Positions 8,472 through 44,835 are shown, counted from the stretch's first letter. The stretch: 49,585 nt of DNA from Betaproteobacteria bacterium (GCA_012274205.1 JAAOZY010000044.1:1-49585), one strand, 5' to 3'. Numbers and translations are program-made. The notes: generated from the sequence alone by a model not told the origin.

Positions 8472-11090
8472 TTATTTCAGCGTATTGGTCGGGTTGGAAA
8501 TGCCGATCGTGTAGTTCAGGTAATTGCTGCCGTTGCCGGCCACGCCTTTTTCGCAGGTGAAAGTCGAGGACATGTCGTCGAACGGGAAGGTGTAGCAGGT
8601 CGGGCAGGCGTTTTTCAACCAGGTGATGGTCGGCAGTACATACTGGACCCACGCCGGCCCTTTGGTCGTATAGTCGACCGCCGGTTTCGCAATGCTGGTC
8701 CAGTTCGTGCCCCCGCAAGCCATTACCGCGGGCTGGCCGGTGGGAGCCGGGTTCGTATACGGGCTGAAGCTGTTGTTGGCGCACAGCTGCAAGTCGCCCA
8801 CCGAAATGCTCGTCTGCGAATTGAACGCGGGGCTGATCGCATTCGATGTTGCAAAATCGAAGGGCGCGGCGTTGAGGAAACTGCTGTCCGTATTCTGATT
8901 CCAGCCCCAGATCTGGTTCGCGGTCGCCCAGGACACAAAGTTGCCGCAGACGCGCTTGCTCGCATCGAAGGTGAATTTGCCTTTCAGAACCTCGCTCTGA
9001 TTCCAGCCGCAAACATTTCCGCCGGCGCCGGCGCCGGTGCAGGTATCCTGCGCCGAGCAGCTCGTCACTGTCGTGGTGCTGGGGGCGACCACGGCGAAAT
9101 ACGATGCCGGACTGTCTGTGATCTTCTGATCGGACGGAAAACTCGACGCCGCGTCAGGCGCAAAATTCCATGTGCTGTTCGGAAGATAGCCTCCCGGAAA
9201 CGGATTCGAGCCGGCGACGCCGCAGGAATACGCCTCCTTGTCGGAAGGCGGCGACTTGCCTTCGCTGCTGGTCGGCCCAAACGCAAAGGCGTAATTCGCG
9301 CCGTTGATGATCGAAACGTCGTAATAGTCGACCGTATTGTGCTGATAGGTGACTTCGGCGAGGGTGTTCGCGGCGTAAGTGGGGCCAGTGCCCGGCGTGG
9401 CCGGAACGCCCGGGCAGGCAGCGCCGGGGCATTGCAGCGCGTAATAATTGCCCGACCATTGAATCTGCTGGCCGCCGGAGGTGATCCCCGACCAGTGCGG
9501 AATGAACTGGGTCGTCGAGGCCTTGGGCGCCAGGATGCCGGTTCCGTTGGCGAAGCCCGGGTTATCCCAGAAGCACATGAAAGGCGTTTTTCCCTTCGCC
9601 ACGCCGGCGCCGCCCTGGACGCAGGTCGAACCGATCGGGCATGCATTCTTCCCCAGCGACGTGGGGCCGCAGTAGGACTGCGCTCCGGCCTCGGTCCTGG
9701 CCGGATTGGTGGGATCGCCGCCCGAGGCCACCGATGCCGGCGAGGTATACGCGCTCGCCGTGCCGGCGTTAACGCCGACGATGACCGTGTCGGAGGCGTT
9801 GTTGGTGAAGGTGATCGTCCTGCCGTCGGTCGACGCGCTGTTATCCACCGACGCCAGCGTGACCTGGCTCTGGTAGGAAGGCGTGTAGCCCGATGGCGTC
9901 GGAGCCTTCGCCGCCACCGTCACGTCAAGCGCGACCTCGAGCCCGTTCCCCGCGGCCCCTTTCAACGGCAGCAGGCCGAAACCGCAGGACGTCGTCGAAG
10001 CCGCAAGCGAGGCGGAGCTGCTGTTATCGAGCGACAATTCGCATGTTGCGGAACTGGCGTTCTGTCTGCTGGCGTCGCTGTTCGATCCATCCGGATACGA
10101 ATAGAACGCCAGAGCGCCCGGGTCGGTGCTGGTAACGGTCACCGTGTAGGCCGACTGCAGCAGGGTGTCGTCGGTCAGGTACACGAACAGCGGCGCCTTC
10201 ATCCCGAGGTAGATCTGGCCGGACGAGTTCTGCGAAGCTACGTTGATGACGCCCGCGGACTGTTGCGCGGTGCCTTTCCAGGTGATCGTGACATTGTCCT
10301 GCGGGCCGAAAGGAGCATTGTTGCCCGCGACCCAGGCGCCGGTCGGACTGATGGTGTTCGTGAAGGATGTCTTCGAGGCTACCTTGGTCGCGTCTATGGT
10401 TCCGGCAATCGCGCAGCTCGGCGACAACGTTGTCAGGGCACACTGTCCGCCGCCTGACAGCGTGATTCCGGCGGCTTCGTCCATCAACACCCACAGCGGG
10501 TTGTCGGCCGGGATCTGCTGGCTCGTCGTTCCGGTTGCAGGATCCAGCTTGACCGTGATCGAAAATGGGTAGGGAACGTTGGCTCCCGAAAAAAACGTCC
10601 GGGTTTCCGCGGCGACCGAAATCGTACCGTAGGGACTTGCGCTGCCCGCTACGGTCACGTCGGAGCTCGCATCGGCGTAGCCCTCGGCGCGCGCAAGCAG
10701 ACTGAACGCCCCCGCCTTTTTGCCGGTGACCGTCACCGTGCAGCTTGACGCGCTGGAAGACAGGACGCAGCTCGAGGGGGAGACCTGGCCGACCGAGGTA
10801 TCGGAAACGCTCAGGTCGATGCGCGTTCTTGTCGCGCTGCCGCTCCCGGCCGACGCATCCGCAGCCAAGCTCACGCTGGCGAGCGTGACCGGCGCGACCT
10901 GGGTCCCGATTTGAAGCTGGCCGGCGCCATTCATGCTGACCACAACCGACTTTGCGCTGCCGGGCCTTACTTGCAGACTCTGCGTCGCGGTTTGAACCTG
11001 GCTGGCGCTATTCGAGTTTCCGCCTCCGCATCCGGCAATCGCAATCGTCGCCAGGCCCAGGACCAGCATTTTCAGTGTCGCGGTCGTCAT
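8472..11090 (-). CDS. Large surface lipoprotein: N-terminal beta-rich/Ig-like region plus an expanded C-terminal thaumatin-like (PR-5 family) domain
   Basis: ATG at 11088-11090 with AAGGGGA SD. Lipobox LATIAIAGC. C-terminal half (about 8475..9821) carries ITFTNNASDTVIVGV, TLAEVTYQHNTVDYYDVSIINGANYAF, CTGAGAGGNVC and LKNACPTCYTFPFDDMSSTFTC. All resemble thaumatin-family motifs. Confidence 0.8.
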   Translation of the reverse strand: MTTATLKMLVLGLATIAIAGCGGGNSNSASQVQTATQSLQVRPGSAKSVVVSMNGAGQLQIGTQVAPVTLASVSLAADASAGSGSATRTRIDLSVSDTSVGQVSPSSCVLSSSASSCTVTVTGKKAGAFSLLARAEGYADASSDVTVAGSASPYGTISVAAETRTFFSGANVPYPFSITVKLDPATGTTSQQIPADNPLWVLMDEAAGITLSGGGQCALTTLSPSCAIAGTIDATKVASKTSFTNTISPTGAWVAGNNAPFGPQDNVTITWKGTAQQSAGVINVASQNSSGQIYLGMKAPLFVYLTDDTLLQSAYTVTVTSTDPGALAFYSYPDGSNSDASRQNASSATCELSLDNSSSASLAASTTSCGFGLLPLKGAAGNGLEVALDVTVAAKAPTPSGYTPSYQSQVTLASVDNSASTDGRTITFTNNASDTVIVGVNAGTASAYTSPASVASGGDPTNPARTEAGAQSYCGPTSLGKNACPIGSTCVQGGAGVAKGKTPFMCFWDNPGFANGTGILAPKASTTQFIPHWSGITSGGQQIQWSGNYYALQCPGAACPGVPATPGTGPTYAANTLAEVTYQHNTVDYYDVSIINGANYAFAFGPTSSEGKSPPSDKEAYSCGVAGSNPFPGGYLPNSTWNFAPDAASSFPSDQKITDSPASYFAVVAPSTTTVTSCSAQDTCTGAGAGGNVCGWNQSEVLKGKFTFDASKRVCGNFVSWATANQIWGWNQNTDSSFLNAAPFDFATSNAISPAFNSQTSISVGDLQLCANNSFSPYTNPAPTGQPAVMACGGTNWTSIAKPAVDYTTKGPAWVQYVLPTITWLKNACPTCYTFPFDDMSSTFTCEKGVAGNGSNYLNYTIGISNPTNTLK

Positions 11091-11375
11091 CGTTTCCCCT
11101 TTTCAAAGGTGTGCGGTATTGAGCGCAATTCTGCGCCTGCATCATATGCAGAAGGCGACGGCCTTGCAATGTTCTTTCCGCGATCAGGCGATGGCGTCGA
11201 GGGTTCGCGTCAGCGGGATGCAATCCATGCCGCGAAACGGCTGCGGGGGCGTGTCGACCGGTCGCGGTCTGCATCAACAGCCGCCTGCTGCGCGTAGAAT
11301 TGCTCCGCCAGCATGCCGAATCCGGCGTGCGCGCCGGCCCAGGCCCGCGCAAGGCTCGATACCGGAGAAGGGCGC

Positions 11376-12673: not shown

Positions 12674-13075
12674 ATGCCATTTTCTCCGCGCAAGGCAATT
12701 CCGCTATTGCTGCTGGCCGTTTTGAGCAACAGCGCGATGGCGGACTGGGTCAAGGTCGGCAGCAGCAGGACCGAGACCCTTTACGTAGACCCGTCCACCA
12801 TCCGTGCCACGGACAATGTGGCGAGAATGTGGGCTTTGAATGACTTCGTCGCGCTGCAACGAGTCGACAAGCGCCAGCCATTCAAGTCGGAAAAGATGGA
12901 ATATGAATACGACTGCAAGAGCGAAAAGTCGCGCCTGCTCTACTTCTCTTCCCACCCCGAGAGCATGGCGGAAGGCGCAGCACTCGACTTCAATGTTGCG
13001 CCTGGCGCGTGGACAGCCCATTTGCCCGGCAGCGGATTGGAAATCCTGTGGAAAATCGCCTGCGGGAAAGCATAA
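12674..13075 (+). CDS. Secreted surface-adhesin protein-E-like domain protein
   Basis: Signal peptide ends in AMA-DW. ADWVKVGSS...LYVDPSTIR...YEYDCKSEKSRLL...LWKIACGK matches the protein-E-like small secreted proteins common in betaproteobacteria. Confidence 0.7.
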   Translation: MPFSPRKAIPLLLLAVLSNSAMADWVKVGSSRTETLYVDPSTIRATDNVARMWALNDFVALQRVDKRQPFKSEKMEYEYDCKSEKSRLLYFSSHPESMAEGAALDFNVAPGAWTAHLPGSGLEILWKIACGKA

Positions 13076-13260
13076 GCCCCGCTTCGTGCTGAGGCTGCCG
13101 GGTTCGCGACACCCTGCCGCATACCTGCGCCCTTTCCTGGTTCCGTCAGGAGCGGAAGTCTTGCCTGACTGCGCCGCCTGTCGATGAAGGGCGACGCGAT
13201 GGCCACCGGCCGTTCAGGCATGATCCTGATTTTATGCACCACCAACCGGAGAGTCTTGTT

Positions 13261-13575
13261 ATGAAACAACTGAAACGAAGTGCTTCCGCCGCATTTCTTG
13301 CCCTCACGCTGGCAAGCATGGTGGGATGCGCGGCAACCGCCACCAGAGAAAGCACGGGTCAGTTTGTCGATGATGCCGCCATAACCACGAAGGTCAAGGC
13401 GGCGATATTGGACCAGCCAACGCTCAAATTATTCGATATCCATGTGGCCACATTCAATGGGACGGTCGAGCTCAGCGGCATCGTCGCGTCGCAGTCGACC
13501 ATCGACAAGGCGGTCGAAGTTGCGCGCAAGGTCAGCGGTGTGAAGGCGGTCAAGAACGGCATGCGAGTCATGTAG
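13261..13575 (+). CDS. BON-domain lipoprotein (OsmY-like)
   Basis: ATG at 13261 after GGAGAG. Lipobox LASMVGC. DDAAITTKVKAAI...VELSGIVAS...KVSGVKAVKN is a BON domain. Confidence 0.85.
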   Translation: MKQLKRSASAAFLALTLASMVGCAATATRESTGQFVDDAAITTKVKAAILDQPTLKLFDIHVATFNGTVELSGIVASQSTIDKAVEVARKVSGVKAVKNGMRVM

Positions 13576-13607
13576 TACCCGAGCTCAGGCAGGCATGAGC
13601 ACGCGCT

Positions 13608-14162
13608 CTATTTGGCGAGCTGGTCGGCAGCTTTGATTCCCTGGCAGTCGGGGCCGAGATATTTCATTTGAGACTCGCTTTGGATCGTGTGGCGACCGCG
13701 AGCGTCGGTCACGGTCATATCCACGCGAGTAGTCACCGTGTCCCCCTCGGCGACGCTAGTGCCACTGCCGACGTTGGTCGCGCCATTGGCCGTGCAGTTG
13801 AACTCAAACTGGATTGAGTTGCCGCTGTGCACGAGCTTGGCCGGCTCGCAGCGACCTTGGGGATCTACCATCGGCCGATTGCGTGCCGCCATGGCCGGGC
13901 TGATGCAGATGCGCGTGCTGCCGCCCGAGCCCACACCTTGACTACCCATCCTGGACTCGATTTGCTTGCGCTGAGCCGGGGACATGTTGGCCAATGCCTG
14001 CTGCATCTGGCCCCGGAGTGCCGCCATCTGCGCAGCCGTGTCCTGGCCGTCCAGAACCTGCCGGATCTGTTTCATTTCCCACAAGCCGGGCTTGAGCTGG
14101 TGGTTTTCCGCGAATGCGCTGCCGCTCAACATAAGGAGCATCACGAGGGCGAGTTTCTTCAT
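13608..14162 (-). CDS. DUF3617-family secreted protein
   Basis: Real start is MKKLALVMLLMLSGSAFA (ATG at 14160-14162). LKPGLWE and two conserved Cys pairs match my recollection of DUF3617. Confidence 0.7.
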   Translation of the reverse strand: MKKLALVMLLMLSGSAFAENHQLKPGLWEMKQIRQVLDGQDTAAQMAALRGQMQQALANMSPAQRKQIESRMGSQGVGSGGSTRICISPAMAARNRPMVDPQGRCEPAKLVHSGNSIQFEFNCTANGATNVGSGTSVAEGDTVTTRVDMTVTDARGRHTIQSESQMKYLGPDCQGIKAADQLAK

Positions 14163-14254
14163 GGCCTGCTTCCGTTTTATTCTCGAACTGCACATTAGCA
14201 GCTTCGCCGGGCAGGGACAAATCCATTCCATGAAACGGCTACGCGCGTATCGGC

Positions 14255-14590
14255 TCAACTGAATTTCAGCGAGTCCAGCGCTTTTGCGAACCGCGGCAGG
14301 CGCGCCAGAGCATCACGAAGGCGCTTGATCCCGCTGCTCCGGCGGATCGCACGGGAACTTGCGCCGAGCAGCCGGATGGCGCCGGCGGGGTTGCCTTCGA
14401 CCAGCGCCAGGCCGCCGCGCTCGATGCGCTTGCGTTCGCCCGCGGCGAGCAGGTAGTCCTCGGGCTCGCCTTCGAGCGTGAGCCACACCACGCCTTCGGT
14501 ACATTCGAGCTCGACATTGCGCGCGCCGCGCAGAGCGAGCGGCGTGCCCGCGGCAAGCTGGATGACCCCGTTTCCCAATGACATGCGCAT
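14255..14590 (-). CDS. DUF2917-family small protein
   Basis: 111-aa ORF (VWLTLEGEPEDYLL...G). This family is typically divergent from MocR-type regulators, as it is here. Confidence 0.65.
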   Translation of the reverse strand: MRMSLGNGVIQLAAGTPLALRGARNVELECTEGVVWLTLEGEPEDYLLAAGERKRIERGGLALVEGNPAGAIRLLGASSRAIRRSSGIKRLRDALARLPRFAKALDSLKFS

Positions 14591-14800: not shown

Positions 14801-16249
14801 ATGGACCAGCGGGCACTGCGTTACGAACAACTGGCGGACGAACTCGCGGGCATGATCGCGGCGCGCGTGCTGCGCCCCGGGGAGCGCCTGCCCTCGGTGC
14901 GCCGCCTGGCGAGCGAAAAGAAACTGTCCGTCTCCACCGTGCTGCAGGCGCTGCGCCAGCTGGAGGAGCGCGGCCAGGTCGAAGCGCGGCCGCAGTCGGG
15001 CTTCTTTGTGCGGCCGACCGTCCCGCACCAGCGCGCGCAACTCGAAGCGCACACGCCCCAGCGCGCGGCGCGCCCGGTGGCGGTCGACATCAACGGCCGG
15101 CTGATGCGCGTGCTGGCGCTGAACAATCGCAGCGACATGGTGCCGCTGGGCGCGGCGTTGCCCTCGGCCGAACTGCTGCCGCTGGCGCAGCTGCAGCGCC
15201 TTTACGGCCAGGTCGGGCGGCGCTCGGCGCCGCTGCTCGAGGGCAACAGCCACACTGCAATGAATCAGCCGGACCTGGTGCGCCAATTCGCGCGCCATTC
15301 GCTCGGCTGGGGCCGGCCCCTGGAGCCGGAGGAGATCGTGATCACCAACTCCTGCACCGAGGCCATGGCGCTGTGCCTGCGCGCGGTGACGCAGCCGGGG
15401 GATACCGTGGCGGTCGAATCGCCGTCCTACTATCTGATGCTGCAATTGCTGGAACAGCTGGGTCTCAAGGCGCTGGAGATTCCGACCCATCCGCGCCACG
15501 GCATATCGGTGGATGCGCTCGACATCGCGACGCGCGAGCGGCGCATCGCCGCCTGCCTGCTGGTGAGCAATTTCAACAATCCGCTGGGCAGCCTCATGCC
15601 CGACGAGGAAAAGAAGCGCCTGGCGAAGCTGATGGCGGGGCGCGCGATACCGGTGATCGAGGACGACATCTACGGCGATCTGCATTTCGGCCCGGATCGG
15701 CCCTGGCCGCTGAAGTCCTTCGACCGCGCCGGCAACGTGATGCTGTGCTCGTCGCTGTCGAAAACACTGAGCCCCTCGCTGCGCCTGGGCTACGTCGCCG
15801 CGGGGCGCTTCCATGCGCAGGTTCTGATGCAAAAGACGATGACCTCGGGCGCCACCAACCCGGTGACGCAGCTGGTGGCGGCGCGCTTTCTGGAATCGAC
15901 GGCCTACCCGCGCCACCTGCTGCGCCTGCGCCGCGCCTACGAGCGGCAGGTAATGCAGATGTCGGAGGCGGTGCTGCGCCATTTTCCGCCGGGGACGCGG
16001 CTGTCGCAGCCGCAGGGCGGCGTCGTGCTCTGGGTCGAGCTTGCGCCGGGGACCGACGCCGAAGCGCTGTTCGAGCTCGCGCTGGGTGCCGGGATCGCCT
16101 TTGTTCCCGGCGATCTGTTCTCCGCCGGCGGCCAATACCGCAATTGCCTGCGCCTGAACTGCGGCCATCCCTGGTCGGAGCGTTTCGAGCAGGCGGTGAA
16201 ACGCCTGGGTGCGCTGGCGCTGACGCTGGCAAAGGCGGCCCGGTCCTGA
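14801..16249 (+). CDS. MocR/GabR/PdxR-type regulator (GntR wHTH fused to a fold-type-I aminotransferase-like domain)
   Basis: N-terminus LPSVRRLASEKKLSVSTVLQALRQLEERG is a GntR HTH. The long C-terminal domain has SLSKTLSPSLRLGY (PLP-lysine region). Confidence 0.9.
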   Translation: MDQRALRYEQLADELAGMIAARVLRPGERLPSVRRLASEKKLSVSTVLQALRQLEERGQVEARPQSGFFVRPTVPHQRAQLEAHTPQRAARPVAVDINGRLMRVLALNNRSDMVPLGAALPSAELLPLAQLQRLYGQVGRRSAPLLEGNSHTAMNQPDLVRQFARHSLGWGRPLEPEEIVITNSCTEAMALCLRAVTQPGDTVAVESPSYYLMLQLLEQLGLKALEIPTHPRHGISVDALDIATRERRIAACLLVSNFNNPLGSLMPDEEKKRLAKLMAGRAIPVIEDDIYGDLHFGPDRPWPLKSFDRAGNVMLCSSLSKTLSPSLRLGYVAAGRFHAQVLMQKTMTSGATNPVTQLVAARFLESTAYPRHLLRLRRAYERQVMQMSEAVLRHFPPGTRLSQPQGGVVLWVELAPGTDAEALFELALGAGIAFVPGDLFSAGGQYRNCLRLNCGHPWSERFEQAVKRLGALALTLAKAARS

Positions 16250-23607: not shown

Positions 23608-25422
23608 TTAGCCGTTTCCCGCCTGCTTGGCGTTGTACATGGCGGCGTCGGCCGAATTGACCAGCATGTCGGCATCGCAGCCGTCCGCCGGATAGATCGC
23701 AATGCCGATGCTGGACCCGATCTGGACGTTGCGTCCATGCGGGCCGATGAGGAACGGCGCGGCAATCGCGGTAACGATCTTCTTCGCGACGATTTCCGCT
23801 TCGTCGCCCCTGGCGATGTGGGGCAGGATTACCGTGAATTCATCGCCGCCGACGCGCGCCACCGTGTCGGATTCGCGCACCTGGCCCCGGATTCGCGCAG
23901 CCACCGCGCGCAGCATCTCGTCGCCCGCGGCGTGCCCCAGGCTGTCATTCACCGGCTTGAATTTATCCAGATCCAGGTACAGCAGGGCGAACTGGCGCGA
24001 GTCGCGTTTGGCCAGGCTGAGCGCCTGCTGCAACCGGTCGTTGAACAACAGGCGGTTGGGCAGTCCGGTGAGGCTGTCGTGGTGCGCGACGCGCTGGATG
24101 CGCTCCTCCGCCAGCTTGTGTTCGGTGATGTCGGTGATCACCGCGAACAGACCCAGCACCTCGCCCCGGTCGCCGACATGGGGCAACAGCTTGACCTCGA
24201 GATGGCGCGCTTCGCCGTTCGGGAGCGTGCGCGTTCTCCGGTAGGTGACCGGATGTCCCTGCATGGCGCGCATGAAATTGCCTTCGACCTCGCGGTGGGC
24301 TTCTTCCCCGATCACTTCGCGCAGGTGCTTGCCGATGATGTTCTCGACGCTAAAGCCGAAGAATTCCACGAATTGCTTGTTGACCGAGCGGTAGCGCAGG
24401 TTCTCGTCGAAAGCGGCCGTCATGACCGGAACGTTGTCGGCAAAAACGCGCAGTCTTTCCGCGGTATCGCGCAGATCCTGCTCGGCGCGCTTGCGCGCGG
24501 TGATGTCGGTGCCGATGCCGCGATAGCCCTTGAACGCGCCGGATTCGTCGAACACGGGGTCGCCGCTGATCGACAGATGGCGCGCGGGAGCGTCGCTGCC
24601 GACGCGCGAAAATTCGAAGCTGCGGAAGGACCGGTGCGCTTCGAGCGCCTCGCGGTGGGCCTGCCAGCCCGCATCGTCCGGCGAAAGATACGGTACCTCC
24701 CAGCGGCGCTGGCCGATCTGCGGCGTTTGCGCGAGGTCCGGCACGCCGCTCGCCGTGCCGCCCGAGCCGATCAGCGTGAGCCGGTGTTCGGCGTCGCTCT
24801 CCCAGTAGAAGTCGGAGGACATCTCGGTCAGGCTGCGAAACCGCGCCTCGCTGTTGCGCAGCCTGCGTCGCAGCGTATTGATCTGGCCGCCGATGATGGC
24901 GAAGCCGGGCAGCAATCCGGCAAGCATCAGCCAGCTCAGCCATTCGAGGGGCACCTCCTGAATGGCCTGCGGCCGCCGGTACATCAGCAGGTCGATAACC
25001 AGTGCGTAGGCCGCCAGCGTGTACAGCGTGACCAGCGTGAATTCGCGCGTGTCCAGGCGAAATACGCCAAAAAGGAAAATGATGAAACAGCCGAACAGCG
25101 CGATGTTGCGGCCGAATTCCATGTGGTAAATGGTGAACATCAGCAGCGTGACTGCCGCAAGCATTTGCAGCTTCGTAAGGCTGGGGTCGCTGAAGCGCAG
25201 ATTGAAGCCGGAACGGAATGTCGCGTACAGCGCGACATTGATCGCGACAAAGGCGGCCGTGGTAAGGAGCACGGCCGCCGCCGGCAGCGCGCCGAACGCC
25301 CAAGCGATCGCCACCAGCGTTGCGCCGAGCAGATAGTTCAGCGCGGCGAGGCCGAACCGGCGCAGGCGCAGCGCCTGTTTCGGGTCGAGTGAGGGGGGGA
25401 TCAGAAAGGCGGCCAGTTTCAT
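23608..25422 (-). CDS. Membrane-anchored PAS-PAS-GGDEF diguanylate cyclase
   Basis: N-terminal TM block and two PAS-like regions. The GGDEF domain has RESD-x5-GGDEF (I-site plus active site). Start at ATG 25422 (MKLAAF), or 25440. Confidence 0.9.
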   Translation of the reverse strand: MKLAAFLIPPSLDPKQALRLRRFGLAALNYLLGATLVAIAWAFGALPAAAVLLTTAAFVAINVALYATFRSGFNLRFSDPSLTKLQMLAAVTLLMFTIYHMEFGRNIALFGCFIIFLFGVFRLDTREFTLVTLYTLAAYALVIDLLMYRRPQAIQEVPLEWLSWLMLAGLLPGFAIIGGQINTLRRRLRNSEARFRSLTEMSSDFYWESDAEHRLTLIGSGGTASGVPDLAQTPQIGQRRWEVPYLSPDDAGWQAHREALEAHRSFRSFEFSRVGSDAPARHLSISGDPVFDESGAFKGYRGIGTDITARKRAEQDLRDTAERLRVFADNVPVMTAAFDENLRYRSVNKQFVEFFGFSVENIIGKHLREVIGEEAHREVEGNFMRAMQGHPVTYRRTRTLPNGEARHLEVKLLPHVGDRGEVLGLFAVITDITEHKLAEERIQRVAHHDSLTGLPNRLLFNDRLQQALSLAKRDSRQFALLYLDLDKFKPVNDSLGHAAGDEMLRAVAARIRGQVRESDTVARVGGDEFTVILPHIARGDEAEIVAKKIVTAIAAPFLIGPHGRNVQIGSSIGIAIYPADGCDADMLVNSADAAMYNAKQAGNG

Positions 25423-25669
25423 GCTCTCGTCTTGTGGCATTGGTGCGGATTGGGAAGCACAGGCAATTCGCGACGAAAGATCCGTGGCCGCTTGCGATTC
25501 GCCGGCCGCTCGTCTGCCGCACGTCGAATGTAAGTCCAAGAAATTATTACATAATCATGACCGTCGCAAAGCGAAGCCAAACGGATTTCACAATATTTAA
25601 AGATTGGCCTGCCCATGGTTTCGGCGGTGCCCTGCGCCGGACCTGAATGCCGAAGCTGCGTCCAGGACA

Positions 25670-26351: not shown

Positions 26352-26765
26352 ATGACTAAGCACGCACCCAAGGTACTGGTCACCAAAATCGGACTCGATG
26401 GACACGATCGCGGCAGCCGCGTGGTCGCGTCCTTCCTGCGCGACGCCGGCATGGAGGTGGTGTATACGCCGCCGTGGCAGGACATCCCCACGGTGGTCAA
26501 GCTGGCGATGGAGGAAGACGTCGACGTGATCGGCGTGTCCTCGCTCGCGACCGACCACCTGATCGTACCCAAGCTGATGCAGGCGCTGCGCGCCGCCGGG
26601 CTCGAGGACATCGCCGTCGTCGTCGGTGGCATCGTGCCCGACGCGGACGAAGCGGTGCTGCTCGAAGCCGGCGTGGCCCGGGTATTCCACCCGGGCAGCG
26701 CGCTCGAAGACATCGCGGCCGAGATCGGGCGGCTTACGCAACAACGGCGCGAAGTCCGTATTTGA
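26352..26765 (+). CDS. Acyl-CoA mutase small subunit (cobalamin-binding domain)
   Basis: ATG at 26352. [19 protein letters not shown] contains the DxHxxG cobalamin His-ligand motif. VIGVSSL and VVVGGIVP match the B12-binding Rossmann domain. 137 aa. Confidence 0.9.
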
Positions 26766-26784
26766 TCGACAGGGAGGAATACGC

Positions 26785-28464
26785 ATGAACAAACCACTGG
26801 ATGCGGCGAAACTCGCCGAGCGCGAGACCGGAGCGGAGCAATGGCAGCGCGAATACGCGGACGGCGCGGCGGGCGACAAGACCCTGCGCAACCGTTCCGG
26901 CGTCGAGGTGAAGCCTCTTTACACGCCGCAGGACTGGAACGGCGACCATGCCGACGCGCTCGGCTACCCGGGCCAGCCGCCCTATACGCGCGGCATCTAT
27001 GCCAGCATGCACCGCGGCCGCAGCTGGAGCCAGCGCCAGCTGATCGGTTTGGGCACGCCGGCGGACTACAACGCGCGCCTGCTCGAAATGATCGCCCAAG
27101 GCACCAGCGCGGTATCGCTGATACCGTGCAACTCGGTGTTCCGCGGCTACGACATGGACGAAGTGCATGCGGAGCTGCTGGGCACCTGCGGCGTGGTCGC
27201 GAATACGGCGCAGCACATGGATCAGTGCCTCGCCGGCGTCGATCTTGCGCGCACCTCCTGCGCCATGAACGACCCGTCGCCGTTCACCCTGCTCGCATTC
27301 ATGCTGGCGACGGCGAAACGGCGCGGCGTCGACTGGCGCTCGATCAGCGGCACCTCGAACCAGAGCGACTACCTCAGCCACTATGTCGCCAACCACATGT
27401 TTTTTCGCATCGCGCTGCCCGGCGCGCGCCGCATCCTCACCGATCACATCGAGTTCTGCGGCCAGCACCTGCCGCGCTGGAATCCGCTGTCGGTGGTGGG
27501 GCAGCACATGCAGCAGGCCGGCGCCACGCCGGCCGAGGCCATGGCGTTCACGCTGTCCTCGGCGATCCAGTATGCCGATGACTGCAGCGCGCGCGGCATG
27601 GACCCCGATGCGTTCCTGCCGCGCTTCACTTTTTTCTTCGACATCTCGGTCAGCCTGTTCGAGGAGATCGCCAAGTTTCGCGCCGGCCGGCGCATCTGGG
27701 CGCGCCTTGCGCGCGAGCGCCTGGGTGCGCGCGATCCGCGCTCCTGGCGCTTCAAGTTCCACGGCCAGACTTCGGGCGCGGACCTCACGCGGGCGCAGCC
27801 GCTCAACAACATCGCGCGCGTCACGGTGCAGGCGATCGCCGGCATCCTCGGCGGGCTGCAGTCGCTGCATACCGACGCCTACGACGAGGCGCTGTCCTGC
27901 CCGACCGAATTCGGTGCGCGCATCGCGGTGAACACGCAGAACATCCTGCGCGAGGAGGCGCGCCTCACCGACGTGATCGATCCACTCGGCGGCAGCTACT
28001 ACATCGAGTCGCTCACCGACGAAATGGAGCGCAGGATTCTCGCCGTCATGGCCGAGGTCGAGGCGGCGGGCGGCATGTACGCCGCGGTGGAGCAGGGGCT
28101 GGTGCAGAAGAAAATCGGCGCCTCGGCGCGCGCGTTCCAGGAGAAGGTCGAGTCGGGCGAGCAGACCGTGGTCGGGGTCAATGCCTACCGGGTGGAGGAG
28201 GGCCGCGGCGAGCGCCAGGCGCTGGCCACGCCGGATCCGGCGAACATGCAGGCGCACATCGCCGCGTTCAGGGCGTACAAGGAGGCGCGCTCGCAGGCGG
28301 CGGTGCAGCGCGCACTCGACCGCCTCGCCGCTTCCTGCGGCGACCCGCAGCAGAATATTTTCGCGCGCGTGGTCGAGGCGGCCGAAGCCGGCTGCACCCA
28401 CGGCGAAATCTGCGCCACGCTGCGGCGCGAACTGGGCTTCGGCCAGCCGCTGGTGATGGTCTGA
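26785..28464 (+). CDS. Acyl-CoA mutase large (substrate-binding TIM-barrel) subunit, divergent active site
   Basis: ATG at 26785 after AGGGAGG. 559 aa, collinear by eye with methylmalonyl-CoA mutase alpha ([51 protein letters not shown]). Specificity positions are non-canonical (see findings). Confidence 0.9.
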
Positions 28465-28486
28465 GCGCAGGCCGGGGCGAACCGGC

Positions 28487-29440
28487 ATGAACGCCGAGTC
28501 CAGTGCGAGCCCCTGCGCCGCAATCCTCGCCGGTGACCGGCGCGCGCTGGCGCGCGCGATGTCGGCGGTGGAGAATGAGACCGATGCGGGCAAGGCGCTG
28601 CTGCGCGAGCTGCAGCCGCAGCTTGGGCGCGCGCGCGTGCTCGGCATCACCGGCCCGCCCGGCGCCGGCAAGTCGACGCTGGTCAATGCGCTGATCGGCG
28701 CCTGGCTCGCGCGCGGCGCCAGCGTGGGCGTGGTCGCGGTCGATCCGTCCAGTCCTTTTTCCGGCGGCGCCATTCTCGGCGACCGCATTCGCATGGGCGA
28801 GCACCAGGCGCATGAGCGCGTGTTCATCCGCTCGCTCGCCTCGCGCGGGCACGGCGGCGGCCTGTCGCGCACCGCCGCGCGGATAGTGGACCTGCTCGAT
28901 GCCGCCGGCTACCAGCAGATCATCGTCGAGACCGTGGGCGCGGGCCAGTCCGAGGTCGAAGTGGCCGAGGTCGCGGACACGCGCATCGTGGTGTGCCCGC
29001 CCGGCCTCGGCGACGAAGTGCAGGCACTCAAGGCCGGCATACTCGAGATCGCCGACATCCTGGTGGTGAACAAGGCCGACCTGCCGCAGGCCGAGCGCAC
29101 CGAGCGCGAATTGCTCGCCATGCTGTCGCTGCATCGCTACGCGGACTGGACGCCGCAGGTGCTGCGCACCGTCGCCACCAGCGGCGCGGGCGTGTCCGAA
29201 CTGGCCGATGTCATCGAGCGCCACGCGGCGGCCTGCGCCGGCGCGCGCCGTTCGCATGGCGGGCGCGTGCGCCGCCTGATCGCCGCCAGCGCCGCCGACT
29301 GGGTGAAGCGGCGCATCGAGAACCTGGCCAGCGCCGAATTCGATCAGCTGTGCATGCTGGTGCGCAGCGGCGAGCTCGATTACGCCAGCGCCGACCGGCG
29401 TGCGCTGCAGCTTGCGCTGCATCCCGAGAACAAGGCTTGA
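28487..29440 (+). CDS. meaB: MeaB/ArgK-type G-protein chaperone for B12 mutases
   Basis: P-loop GITGPPGAGKSTL, VAVDPSSPFSGGAILGDRIRM, ETVGAGQSE, and NKAD (NKxD). Confidence 0.9.
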   Translation: MNAESSASPCAAILAGDRRALARAMSAVENETDAGKALLRELQPQLGRARVLGITGPPGAGKSTLVNALIGAWLARGASVGVVAVDPSSPFSGGAILGDRIRMGEHQAHERVFIRSLASRGHGGGLSRTAARIVDLLDAAGYQQIIVETVGAGQSEVEVAEVADTRIVVCPPGLGDEVQALKAGILEIADILVVNKADLPQAERTERELLAMLSLHRYADWTPQVLRTVATSGAGVSELADVIERHAAACAGARRSHGGRVRRLIAASAADWVKRRIENLASAEFDQLCMLVRSGELDYASADRRALQLALHPENKA

Positions 29441-43017: not shown

Positions 43018-44835
43018 ATGCATCTGCTCGAACAGGCTGCAATTTTTCTGCTGGCCGCGGTGCTGCTGGTGCCGCTGTTCCGGCGGCTCAAACTCGGCTC
43101 GGTGCTGGGCTACCTCGCTTCGGGCATGGCCATCGGACCCTGGGGGCTGGGCCTGGTCGGCGAAGTGCAGGCGACCATGAATTTCGCCGAATTCGGCGTG
43201 GTGCTGCTCTTGTTTCTGATCGGCCTCGAACTGCAGCCGAGCCGGCTGTGGGTGCTGCGCCGGCCGGTATTCGGCCTGGGCGGCGCACAGGTGGCGGCGA
43301 CCACGCTGGCGCTGATGCTCGCGAGCCTGGCATTCGGCCTGAACTGGCGCGAGGCGCTGGTGGTCGGCTTCGGCCTGGCAATGTCCTCCACGGCGCTGGT
43401 GATCTCCTCGCTCGCCGAGCGCGGCCAGCTGGCCGAGCGCCATGGCCGCAACGCCTTTGCCGTGCTGCTGTTCCAGGATCTGTCGGTGATTCCGATGCTG
43501 GCGCTGCTGCCGCTGCTGGCGTCCAACACGGCGCAGGGCGGCGGCAACTGGATCGCGGCGCTCAAGGGCGTGGCGGTGATCGTGGCGGTGATCGCGGGCA
43601 GCCGGCTGGTGGTGCGCCCGCTGCTGAAGCGCGCGGCCAGCTACGGCGGGCGCGAGGTGTTCACCGCGGCGGCCTTGCTGCTGGTGATCGGCGCCGCGCT
43701 GATCATGGAGCGCATCGGCCTGTCGGCCTCGCTCGGCGCCTTTCTCGCCGGCGTGCTGCTCGCCGACTCGGAGTTCCGCCACGAACTCGAGGCCGACATC
43801 GAGCCGTTCAAAGGCCTGCTGCTCGGATTGTTCTTCATCGCCGTGGGCATGAGCGCGAATCTGGACCTCGCCTGGCAGCGGCCGCTCGCGGTATTCGGGC
43901 TGGCGCTGGGCCTGATGGCCGGCAAGTTTGCGCTCATGTATGCAATCGCACGCGCCGGCGGCGCGCCGGACGAAACCTCGCAGCGGCTGGCCGCAGCGCT
44001 GGCGCAGGGCGGGGAGTTTGCCTTCGTGCTGTTCGCGGCGGCTGCGGGCCTGGGCATGTTCGCCGCGGACACGGCGCAGCTGCTGGTGCTGGTGGTAACG
44101 CTGTCGATGCTGCTCGCGCCGCCGTTTTTCGCGCTGCACGAGCGCGCGCTCGCGCTCTGGCTGGCGCGCAGCGCCGCGCCCGAGTACGACAGCATCGACG
44201 GGCCCGGCAATCCGGTCATCATCGCCGGCTACGGCCGCTTCGGTCAGATCGTGTCGCGCGTACTGCGCATGTGCGGTTTGCCGTTCACGGCGCTGGAGGC
44301 GAGCTACCAGCAGGTGGATTTCGTGCGCCGCTTCGGCAGCAACAAGGTCTATTACGGCGATGCGTCGCGGCTCGAATTGCTGCAGGCCGCGAAGGCGGGC
44401 GAAGCCAGGCTGTTCGTGCTCGCAATCGACGATGTCGAGGCCTCGGTCAAGACCGCGGAGGTGGTGCGCAGGCATTTCCCCGATCTGCCGATCCTCGCGC
44501 GCGCGCGCAACCGCGTGCACTACTTCCGGCTGCGCGACCTGGGCGTCAAGGCGATCTATCGCGAAACGTTCCCGGCGAGCCTCGACGTCGCGCGCCAGGC
44601 GCTGCTGCGCCTGGGCTTTGGCGCCGCTGCGGCCGAGCATGCGATCGGGCTGTTTCGCCAGCACGACGAGTCCCAGCTCGAAGCGCAGTACGCGGTGAAA
44701 CACGACGAGGCGAAGCTGATCCAGACCGCAAAGCAGGCGGCCGAACAGTTGCGCGAATTGTTCGAGGCCGACAGCGCGGGGACGGTCGCGGATTTCCCGC
44801 GCGTCGCGGCCGAGGGCGCGCCGCGCCGGTCTTGA
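43018..44835 (+). CDS. KefB/KefC-type glutathione-regulated K+ efflux / CPA2 antiporter with C-terminal TrkA-N (RCK) domain
   Basis: LGSVLGYLASGMAIGPWGLGLV and EFGVVLLLFLIGLEL match KefC. The Rossmann motif is VIIAGYGRFGQIVSRVL. Confidence 0.9.
   Translation: MHLLEQAAIFLLAAVLLVPLFRRLKLGSVLGYLASGMAIGPWGLGLVGEVQATMNFAEFGVVLLLFLIGLELQPSRLWVLRRPVFGLGGAQVAATTLALMLASLAFGLNWREALVVGFGLAMSSTALVISSLAERGQLAERHGRNAFAVLLFQDLSVIPMLALLPLLASNTAQGGGNWIAALKGVAVIVAVIAGSRLVVRPLLKRAASYGGREVFTAAALLLVIGAALIMERIGLSASLGAFLAGVLLADSEFRHELEADIEPFKGLLLGLFFIAVGMSANLDLAWQRPLAVFGLALGLMAGKFALMYAIARAGGAPDETSQRLAAALAQGGEFAFVLFAAAAGLGMFAADTAQLLVLVVTLSMLLAPPFFALHERALALWLARSAAPEYDSIDGPGNPVIIAGYGRFGQIVSRVLRMCGLPFTALEASYQQVDFVRRFGSNKVYYGDASRLELLQAAKAGEARLFVLAIDDVEASVKTAEVVRRHFPDLPILARARNRVHYFRLRDLGVKAIYRETFPASLDVARQALLRLGFGAAAAEHAIGLFRQHDESQLEAQYAVKHDEAKLIQTAKQAAEQLRELFEADSAGTVADFPRVAAEGAPRRS

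Follow-up and report, generated by a model that had tools for sequence, protein, structure and literature searches.

Thaumatin-like proteins are textbook defence proteins of plants, fungi and animals. Here we describe a bacterial relative encoded in a 49,585-nucleotide stretch of DNA from a Betaproteobacteria bacterium (GCA_012274205.1 JAAOZY010000044.1:1-49585; hereafter the window), in which an 872-amino-acid (aa) open reading frame (ORF) at 8472-11090 on the minus strand, beginning with ATG, codes for a thaumatin-like lipoprotein. Classical thaumatin-like proteins contain 16 cysteines that form eight disulfides; β-1,3-glucanase activity has been reported for them, and their cleft is thought to be the basis of antifungal action (PMC13106811). 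The acidic cleft of the antifungal members consists of Glu84, Asp97, Asp102 and Asp185 (PMC4360817), which together with Arg44 make up the REDDD motif (PMC13106811). The laminaripentaose-producing β-1,3-glucanases of family GH64 (5h4e, 3gd9) fall in the same GH64-TLP superfamily (PMC13106811; PMC4960229). Among bacterial proteins, the closest described are LegT of Legionella pneumophila (lpg1328, NCBIfam NF045527), a Dot/Icm substrate, and a short thaumatin-like protein of Amycolatopsis rifamycinica (PDB 7p22) of about 220 aa.

The C-terminal half of the window protein has the thaumatin fold, as judged from profile matches, PDB sequence matches and predicted structure, and this domain stands behind a lipoprotein signal, a short tether and a putative stalk of immunoglobulin (Ig)-like modules:

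8472..11090, minus strand: whole gene, encoding a lipoprotein with Ig-like stalk and long-form thaumatin-like domain (ORF list; 21 full-length homologues)
11028..11090, minus strand: lipoprotein signal peptide, aa 1-21, with lipobox I-A-G-C (aa 18-21), Cys21 and Gly at +2 (from the sequence)
10983..11027, minus strand: flexible tether rich in Gly, Ser and Asn, aa 22-36 (low-complexity sequence; predicted local distance difference test score, pLDDT, <50 for residues 1-36)
9822..10982, minus strand: predicted all-β stalk, aa 37-423, about three Ig-like β-sandwich modules (AlphaFold2, AF2, and Foldseek)
8475..9821, minus strand: long-form thaumatin-like domain, aa 424-872, 449 aa with 16 Cys (Pfam, PDB sequences, AF2, Foldseek)
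8472-8474, minus strand: stop codon

We assign the C-terminal domain to the thaumatin fold because three independent tests agree. The Pfam profile PF00314 (Thaumatin) matches at 41.8 bits, above its gathering score of 27.4 (E=1.3e-10), and is above cut-off in 21 of 21 full-length homologues, with a best E of 1.4e-19. When the C-terminal 449 aa were compared with PDB sequences by phmmer, 11 thaumatin-like proteins were found (E 4e-8 to 1e-3), including zeamatin, PR-5d, osmotin, NP24 and Mal d 2, each aligned on the same two blocks, TLAE...DYYDVSIINGAN and WLKNACPTCYTFPFDDMSSTFTC; with a family profile, E against the PDB improved to 6e-14 and a WSGN...C...C block was gained. For the fold itself, a first AF2 model of the full-length protein, built on a 21-sequence alignment, had an overall pLDDT of 58.6 with a poor C-terminal half and was replaced for the domain by a model built on 118 diverse sequences (alignment A2, down to 28% identity), which reached a pLDDT of 92.7 and a predicted template modelling score (pTM) of 0.92. 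In a Foldseek search of the PDB, each of the best 28 matches of this model was a thaumatin or a thaumatin-like protein, with a probability of 1.00 and a template modelling (TM) score of 0.53-0.67 per target. The thaumatin fold consists of a β-sandwich domain I and a disulfide-rich domain II. The hallmark blocks also follow one another in canonical order: N-terminal strand, WSG block, C..C, TLAE..DYYDVS and CPxxY..DD..STFTC.

The original prediction, made from the sequence of the locus, had proposed a C-terminal thaumatin-like domain of about twice the usual length with insertions, and had named a PF00314 search and a structural comparison as ways to check it; both bear the proposal out, as does the length of 449 aa, in two expansions, against about 205 aa in plant and fungal PR-5 proteins. 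It had rested on four motifs, ITFTNNASDTVIVGV (aa 426-440), TLAEVTYQHNTVDYYDVSIINGANYAF (aa 576-602), CTGAGAGGNVC (aa 684-694) and LKNACPTCYTFPFDDMSSTFTC (aa 825-846). All four are present, and the first, second and fourth are thaumatin blocks, but the third is not the equivalent of CxTGDCGGxxxC. It is encoded at nt 9009-9041 and comes after TLAE, whereas the CxTGDCGGxxxC of thaumatin precedes TLAE, and HMMER places the true equivalent at C554-C559 (QCPGAAC). CTGAGAGGNVC is a chance resemblance of Cys and Gly residues.

The anatomy of the domain can be followed along these elements:

9771..9821, minus strand: first strand RTITFTNNASDTVIVGV, aa 424-440, the thaumatin N-terminal strand, with Ala432 at the Cys9 position (R424 and N430 at least 90% conserved in A2)
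9516..9764, minus strand: expansion 1, about aa 443-525, ~70 extra residues, with conserved Cys 474, 484, 490 and 506 (zeamatin alignment)
9414..9458, minus strand: WSGNYYALQCPGAAC, aa 545-559, the thaumatin WSGRFWGRT...CxTGDC block, with N548 at the Arg44 position (HMMER against Mal d 2, NP24 and zeamatin)
9285..9365, minus strand: TLAEVTYQHNTVDYYDVSIINGANYAF, aa 576-602, with E579=Glu84, D591=Asp97 and N596 at the Asp102 position (alignments)
8622..9221, minus strand: expansion 2, in the domain-II region, aa 624-823, ~158 extra residues (zeamatin alignment; secondary structure of the model)
8553..8621, minus strand: WLKNACPTCYTFPFDDMSSTFTC, aa 824-846, the thaumatin CPxAYSYxxDDxTSTFTC block, in which C846 pairs with C623 (alignments)

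The expansions were located by HMMER anchors, in which zeamatin 61-119 corresponds to domain residues 131-190 and zeamatin 172-198 to domain residues 401-427, so that zeamatin 119 to 172 spans domain residues 190 to 401. By this count the 243 extra residues are divided among ~70 before the C..C block, ~158 between the Cys121 and Cys177 equivalents and ~14 at the C terminus. Expansion 2 holds Cys 678, 684, 694, 715, 770 and 792, several short helices and the CTGAGAGGNVC motif.

The 16 cysteines of the domain are invariant in alignment A1 and equal those of classical thaumatins in number, but the set differs. Pairing was inferred from the co-occurrence of Cys presence and absence across the 118 sequences, not from geometry. 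C623 and C846 co-occur perfectly (phi 1.0) and represent the thaumatin bond 121-193, and C474 and C490 of expansion 1 also co-occur (phi 0.89). The columns of A432 and S865, which hold Cys in 56 and 60 relatives, respectively, co-vary (phi 0.93) as the thaumatin bond 9-204 would; by this evidence, the 9-204 bond is lost in the clade of the window protein. The Cys56 and Cys77 equivalents, found in 80 and 86 relatives, are absent from the window protein, leaving C554 and C559. With Ala432 and Ser865 in place of Cys9 and Cys204, and at least six cysteines within the insertions, the canonical set of eight disulfides is not matched, and the set appears to have been rewired relative to classical thaumatins.

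Compared with the plant and fungal PR-5 proteins (osmotin 1pcv, zeamatin 1du5, PR-5d 1aun, Mal d 2 3zs3 and the Puccinia thaumatin-like protein 7p23), the domain thus has the same fold (TM 0.53-0.67), the blocks TLAE...D(F/Y)(F/Y)D(I/V)S and CPxxYxxxxDDxxSTFTC, the Glu84, Asp97 and Asp185 equivalents and at least the 121-193 disulfide in common with them, at 11-15% identity in structural alignments. It differs from them in its two expansions, in lacking the 9-204 bond and the Cys56/Cys77 equivalents while carrying new cysteines in the insertions, in having Asn at the Arg44 and Asp102 positions and no PROSITE-type signature, and in its fusion to a lipoprotein signal and an Ig-like stalk, whereas PR-5 proteins are small, soluble and secreted.

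The N terminus of the protein reads MTTATLKMLVLGLATIAIAG-C21, which fits the lipobox pattern [LVI][ASTVI][GAS]C, and Cys21 is invariant in alignment A1, in keeping with the lipobox signal peptide that had been proposed for it. A lipobox-like signal is present in 123 of the 150 family members of at least 700 aa, compared with 11 of 82 shorter ones. By these sequence features, the protein is a lipoprotein exported by the Sec/Lsp route, with Cys21 as the predicted site of acylation. In E. coli, Asp at +2 leads to retention in the inner membrane, and Gly at +2 fits sorting to the outer membrane. As most family members have Gly or Ser directly after the lipid-modified Cys, the protein is predicted most likely to be anchored in a membrane of the cell envelope, with the outer membrane favoured. 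What the sequence supports is the lipid anchor; exposure of the thaumatin head on the cell surface is putative, and no surface-export partner was identified for the lipoprotein. The part in interactions with fungi, oomycetes or glucan matrices that the original prediction had suggested is likewise speculative.

Between the tether and the head, the stalk residues are modelled as strands only, with AF2 pLDDT mostly 70-90, and their Foldseek matches are solely to tandem Ig-like arrays (SbsC 5ftx, invasin 1cwv, filamin 4m9p and cadherins). Conserved Cys pairs occur at about one per module (C108/C117, C217/C226 and C350/C369). No Pfam family was found for the stalk in the query or in the 21 full-length homologues, and no internal repeat between the modules was detectable by hhalign. 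The N-terminal 402 aa contain 15.7% Ser, 13.9% Ala and 10.9% Thr. Model, fold matches and composition all agree with the description of this region in the original prediction as ~400 aa of Ser/Thr/Ala-rich, β- or Ig-like sequence, and we read aa 37-423 as a probable spacer or stalk.

How widespread is this architecture? A word-indexed search found 23 full-length relatives of the window protein, and the 21 full-length homologues (31-88% identity) all keep the signal, the stalk and the domain. The only named cellular full-length relative from this search is that of Halothiobacillus diazotrophicus (62% identity), which NCBI names 'glycoside hydrolase 64/thaumatin family protein'; the gene is also carried by two Halothiobacillus genomes. 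No public assembly gave a record identical in sequence to the window protein. With the domain alone as the query, phmmer found 348 matches at E<=1e-3 among 1.84 billion cluster representatives, of which 142 remained at E<=1e-10 and 38 at E<=1e-30. Because the complete domains among these matches are almost all 330-470 aa long, the long form appears to be a clade of its own. Matches of a profile search are named 'thaumatin family protein' in metagenome-assembled genomes (MAGs) of Burkholderiales and Burkholderiaceae; the match in Ottowia pentelensis is named a hypothetical protein, and the one in Anaeromyxobacteraceae an Ig-domain protein. From these sequence matches, the architecture is conserved across Pseudomonadota (Burkholderiales, Halothiobacillus) and Myxococcota.

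The Lon protease of the window is 90-94% identical to those of 'Burkholderiales bacterium' MAGs, which makes the host an uncultured betaproteobacterium. Among named relatives, the thaumatin protein is nearest to those of the gammaproteobacterial Halothiobacillus (62-67%), with Ottowia, itself in the Burkholderiales, much more distant, and a fragment of 81% identity is assigned to an Acidobacteriota MAG. Since a Burkholderiales protein is closer to Halothiobacillus than to Ottowia, lateral spread among bacteria is plausible; alternatively, the pattern suggests mis-binning. A secreted, short relative with the long-form domain, P0097 (442 aa, EukProt), is found in the amoebozoan Cavostelium apophysatum and is possibly a contamination.

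LegT is distantly related to this family. Residues 372-761 of its 776-residue profile align with aa 480-866 of the window protein, and in two of the lipoprotein relatives, P0044 and P0052, the profile is aligned over almost its full length (112-761 and 71-761 of 776, respectively). LegT therefore probably shares the layout of a β-rich N-terminal half followed by a long thaumatin-like domain, to judge from these alignments. It was rejected as an ortholog: the match of 66.2 bits, against an equivalog cut-off of 1200 bits, makes it a distant homologue only. LegT is a Dot/Icm substrate, whereas the host of the window is a Burkholderiales bacterium of free-living type whose protein carries a classical lipoprotein signal; no Dot/Icm genes were found among the annotated ORFs of the window. 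The Amycolatopsis protein (7p22) provides a bacterial example of the fold, as the fourth to fifth fold match (E 2e-6, TM 0.61 per target), at 12-13% identity in structural alignment; it lacks the insertions, the stalk and the lipid anchor. For the Amycolatopsis protein and for the function of LegT, our literature searches found only effector and motif tables.

The statement in the original prediction that the thaumatin family is overwhelmingly eukaryotic overstated its rarity in bacteria, given LegT, 7p22 and the relatives that NCBI already calls 'thaumatin family protein'. Bacterial thaumatin-domain proteins are already known and relatives of this one are already annotated automatically, so the assignment is not new as a category. 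We found no description in the literature of the combination seen here, a lipid anchor and stalk bearing a double-sized head with rewired disulfides and an Asn-substituted cleft.

What might such a protein do? Conservation of the cleft, counted in alignment A2, is as follows:

E579, equivalent to Glu84: 116 of 118
D588: 117 of 118
D591, equivalent to Asp97: 115 of 118
D838, in the Asp185 region: 118 of 118
D839, in the Asp185 region: 117 of 118
K826: 118 of 118
Y590 and Y833: 117 of 118 each
N548, at the Arg44 position: Asn in 74 of 118
N596, at the Asp102 position: Asn in 95 of 118, Asp in 4

These counts suggest a cleft that is clearly under selection and chemically distinct from that of the plant PR-5 proteins; the occurrence of Asn at two REDDD positions in most family members suggests that the ligand or the chemistry differs from theirs. 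Because E579, D588, Y590, D591, K826, Y833, D838 and D839 are each kept in at least 115 of 118 sequences, we propose that the protein binds glycans from its anchorage in the envelope through the conserved cleft, a reading to which we give a probability of about one half. In this scheme, the short flexible tether would be followed by the ~390-aa stalk of about three Ig-like modules, which would hold the thaumatin-like head away from the membrane, and the cleft between thaumatin domains I and II would bind a polysaccharide, the precedent being a chain of the β-1,3-glucan type. The head would act mainly as a lectin- or adhesin-like module for glycan recognition, with at most weak hydrolysis, since the Asn substitutions and the insertions suggest a modified specificity and argue against a strong hydrolase activity.

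A link to carbohydrates also comes from the neighbourhood of some relatives. In two of the ten genomic contexts, L007 (10349-12463, plus strand) and L008 (2998-5166, minus strand), the thaumatin gene is adjoined by a gene for a β-helix lipoprotein of ~700 aa (Pel9A-like, with a faint GH141 match), and the two lipoproteins are 39% identical over about 720 aa. We count this adjacency in favour of glycan binding; in part of the family, the lipoprotein may be a carbohydrate-active partner. A tblastn search found no homologue of it in the window.

Several observations weigh against the proposed glycan binding from the envelope. A regular-expression search for the PROSITE-type thaumatin signature, which we take to be G-x-[GF]-x-C-x-T-[GA]-D-C-x(1,2)-[GQ]-x(2,3)-C, gave no match to the protein, nor did a search for its core CxT[GA]DC. 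Only three of the five REDDD residues are kept (E579, D591 and D838), with Asn at the Arg44 and Asp102 positions, and the cleft might be altered in shape or closed off by the two large insertions. No carbohydrate-active genes lie beside the thaumatin gene in the window or in most of the relatives' loci. Several close orthologues have Asp at +2 after the lipid-modified Cys, and Asn or Gln also occur there. Thaumatin-fold proteins can also bind proteins, as does the xylanase inhibitor TLXI (3g7m), or membranes. Finally, the literature entries for LegT give no more than a thaumatin domain and an unknown function (PMC2824747; PMC4256840).

Of the alternatives, the one that survives best, though we consider it unlikely, is that the protein is a true enzyme, a cell-surface endo-β-1,3-glucanase with GH64-like or thaumatin-like chemistry acting on fungal, oomycete or algal glucans or on bacterial curdlan. 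The NCBI name of the Halothiobacillus orthologue cites the GH64/thaumatin superfamily, the Glu and Asp residues of the cleft are invariant, and the β-helix neighbour in L007 and L008 resembles polysaccharide enzymes. Yet membership in GH64 itself could be rejected, as there is no Pfam GH64 match even at E<=10 and 5h4e, the best-placed structure with the GH64 fold of a barrel plus an α/β domain and a catalytic groove, matches only marginally, in 40th place (E 0.28, probability 0.15). The replacement of Asp102 by Asn in 95 of the 118 sequences likewise speaks against hydrolysis, none of the ten contexts has a sugar transporter, TonB receptor or downstream glycosidase beside the gene, and the known hosts, including the sulfur-oxidising Halothiobacillus, do not appear to be obvious glucan degraders.

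It is less probable still that the head binds a protein or membrane target, whether as a glycosidase inhibitor like TLXI or as an adhesin or effector directed against amoebae or other eukaryotic cells, as is suspected for LegT. In favour, TLXI is among the fold matches, and the alignment with LegT covers about 390 aa of the domain and, in two relatives, nearly all of LegT. The amoebozoan Cavostelium has a secreted relative of the long form, and adhesins such as invasin typically carry Ig-like stalks. However, the most conserved residues are those of the acidic and aromatic cleft that typifies glycan-binding thaumatin-like proteins, the family is spread among free-living environmental bacteria that have no known host association, and LegT itself has no assigned function.

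We regard as rather improbable a third alternative, in which the protein faces the periplasm and acts on polymers of the cell itself, such as periplasmic or secreted glucans or exopolysaccharide in transit. Most proteobacterial lipoproteins face the periplasm, the many disulfides would fit folding by the periplasmic DsbA, the Asp at +2 of several orthologues would be expected of such a protein, and the gene stands alone among housekeeping genes in every context. Against this, a ~390-aa stalk seems long for a protein of the periplasm, the gene is distributed patchily and is not core, and no link to glucan-synthesis or export genes was seen in any examined locus.

The weakest alternative, the recent acquisition of a eukaryotic PR-5 gene across kingdoms (the original prediction had asked for interkingdom transfer to be tested), can be set aside: although thaumatin has been classed as a 'eukaryotic motif', with at least 85% of occurrences in eukaryotic proteins (PMC4256840), and the GC content at third codon positions (GC3) of the gene, at 0.80, is somewhat under the 0.85-0.90 of its neighbours, such a transfer is made very unlikely by divergence (the 11-15% identity to plant and fungal proteins, with rewired disulfides), by composition (an overall GC of 0.63 against 0.65 for the window) and by architecture (a distinct long form in 348 cluster representatives, most of the long ones lipoproteins, with the bacterial-type lipobox and stalk kept down to about 30% identity).

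The immediate surroundings of the gene agree with the earlier description of it as standing alone between unrelated housekeeping genes. The downstream genes encode an HrpA helicase, a membrane protein of the CysZ/EI24 type and a protein with a CinA-like MoCF domain; the upstream neighbour, an HpcH/HpaI aldolase gene, lies on the opposite strand. No operon partner is common to all ten loci, whose housekeeping neighbours differ. The remainder of the window is ordinary chromosome, with genes for Lon, glucose-6-phosphate dehydrogenase (G6PD), transaldolase, methylmalonyl-CoA mutase with MeaB, RsmB, a PAS-GGDEF protein and Na+/H+ exchangers. The GC3 comparison was made with seven neighbouring or housekeeping genes, and the mild difference could reflect low expression or an older lateral acquisition. 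Two sequence signals precede the gene:

11095..11099, minus strand: ribosome-binding site GGGGA, 5 nt before the ATG (direct reading of the sequence)
11141..11169, minus strand: weak promoter-like site TTGCAA-17-TATGAT, sigma-70-like (consensus scan, 9/12 matches)

The promoter scan found two such sites in the region, compared with 0.8 expected. No hairpin with a T-tract that could serve as an intrinsic terminator was found 3' of the gene, the hairpin there being no better than those of shuffled sequences (z -0.79), and no RNA element or riboswitch in the flanks matched Rfam at E<=1.

Other genes of the window are recorded here. A small secreted protein of the Adhesin_E family (PF16747) is encoded at 12674-13075 (plus strand), 1.6 kb upstream of the thaumatin gene, and a gene of this family also adjoins the thaumatin gene in L006 (5026-5487) and L009 (3979-4377); this recurrence may be residual synteny or a loose association of envelope proteins. 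The Adhesin_E-like gene of the window belongs to a run of genes for small envelope proteins at 12674-14258; the others encode, at 13234-13575, a BON-domain protein bearing a lipobox-like signal and, at 13608-14258 on the minus strand, a DUF3617 protein. Of the two Na+/H+ exchanger genes, at 1443-2654 and 43018-44835 (both plus strand), the second includes a TrkA_N domain. The thaumatin gene of Ottowia is followed directly downstream by an exchanger gene (L005, 9796-11058), which is probably a coincidence of local synteny. Also present are genes for a GntR-aminotransferase (MocR-type) regulator (14801-16249, plus strand), the PAS-GGDEF diguanylate cyclase (23608-25539, minus strand) and methylmalonyl-CoA mutase with the MeaB GTPase (26626-29440, plus strand).

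To return to the thaumatin-like lipoprotein, that automated annotation labels its relatives as thaumatin family proteins means that the database observation is not new. What the locus offers is a clear instance of an architecture that is conserved in bacteria, occurs in several hundred sequence clusters and is distantly related to LegT. We suggest, tentatively, that the long-form domain might mark an old, mainly bacterial family for glycan recognition at the envelope, of which LegT and the secreted amoebozoan proteins would be offshoots, possibly through exchange between bacteria and amoebae. If this is true, the thaumatin fold would not be an essentially eukaryotic invention that a few bacteria borrowed; a sizeable part of its lineage would be prokaryotic, with a ligand and a chemistry of its own, as reflected in the Asn at two REDDD positions and the rewired disulfides. 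Identification of the ligand would give the whole family its first function, and could clarify the role of LegT and reveal the extent to which the thaumatin cleft can be adapted.

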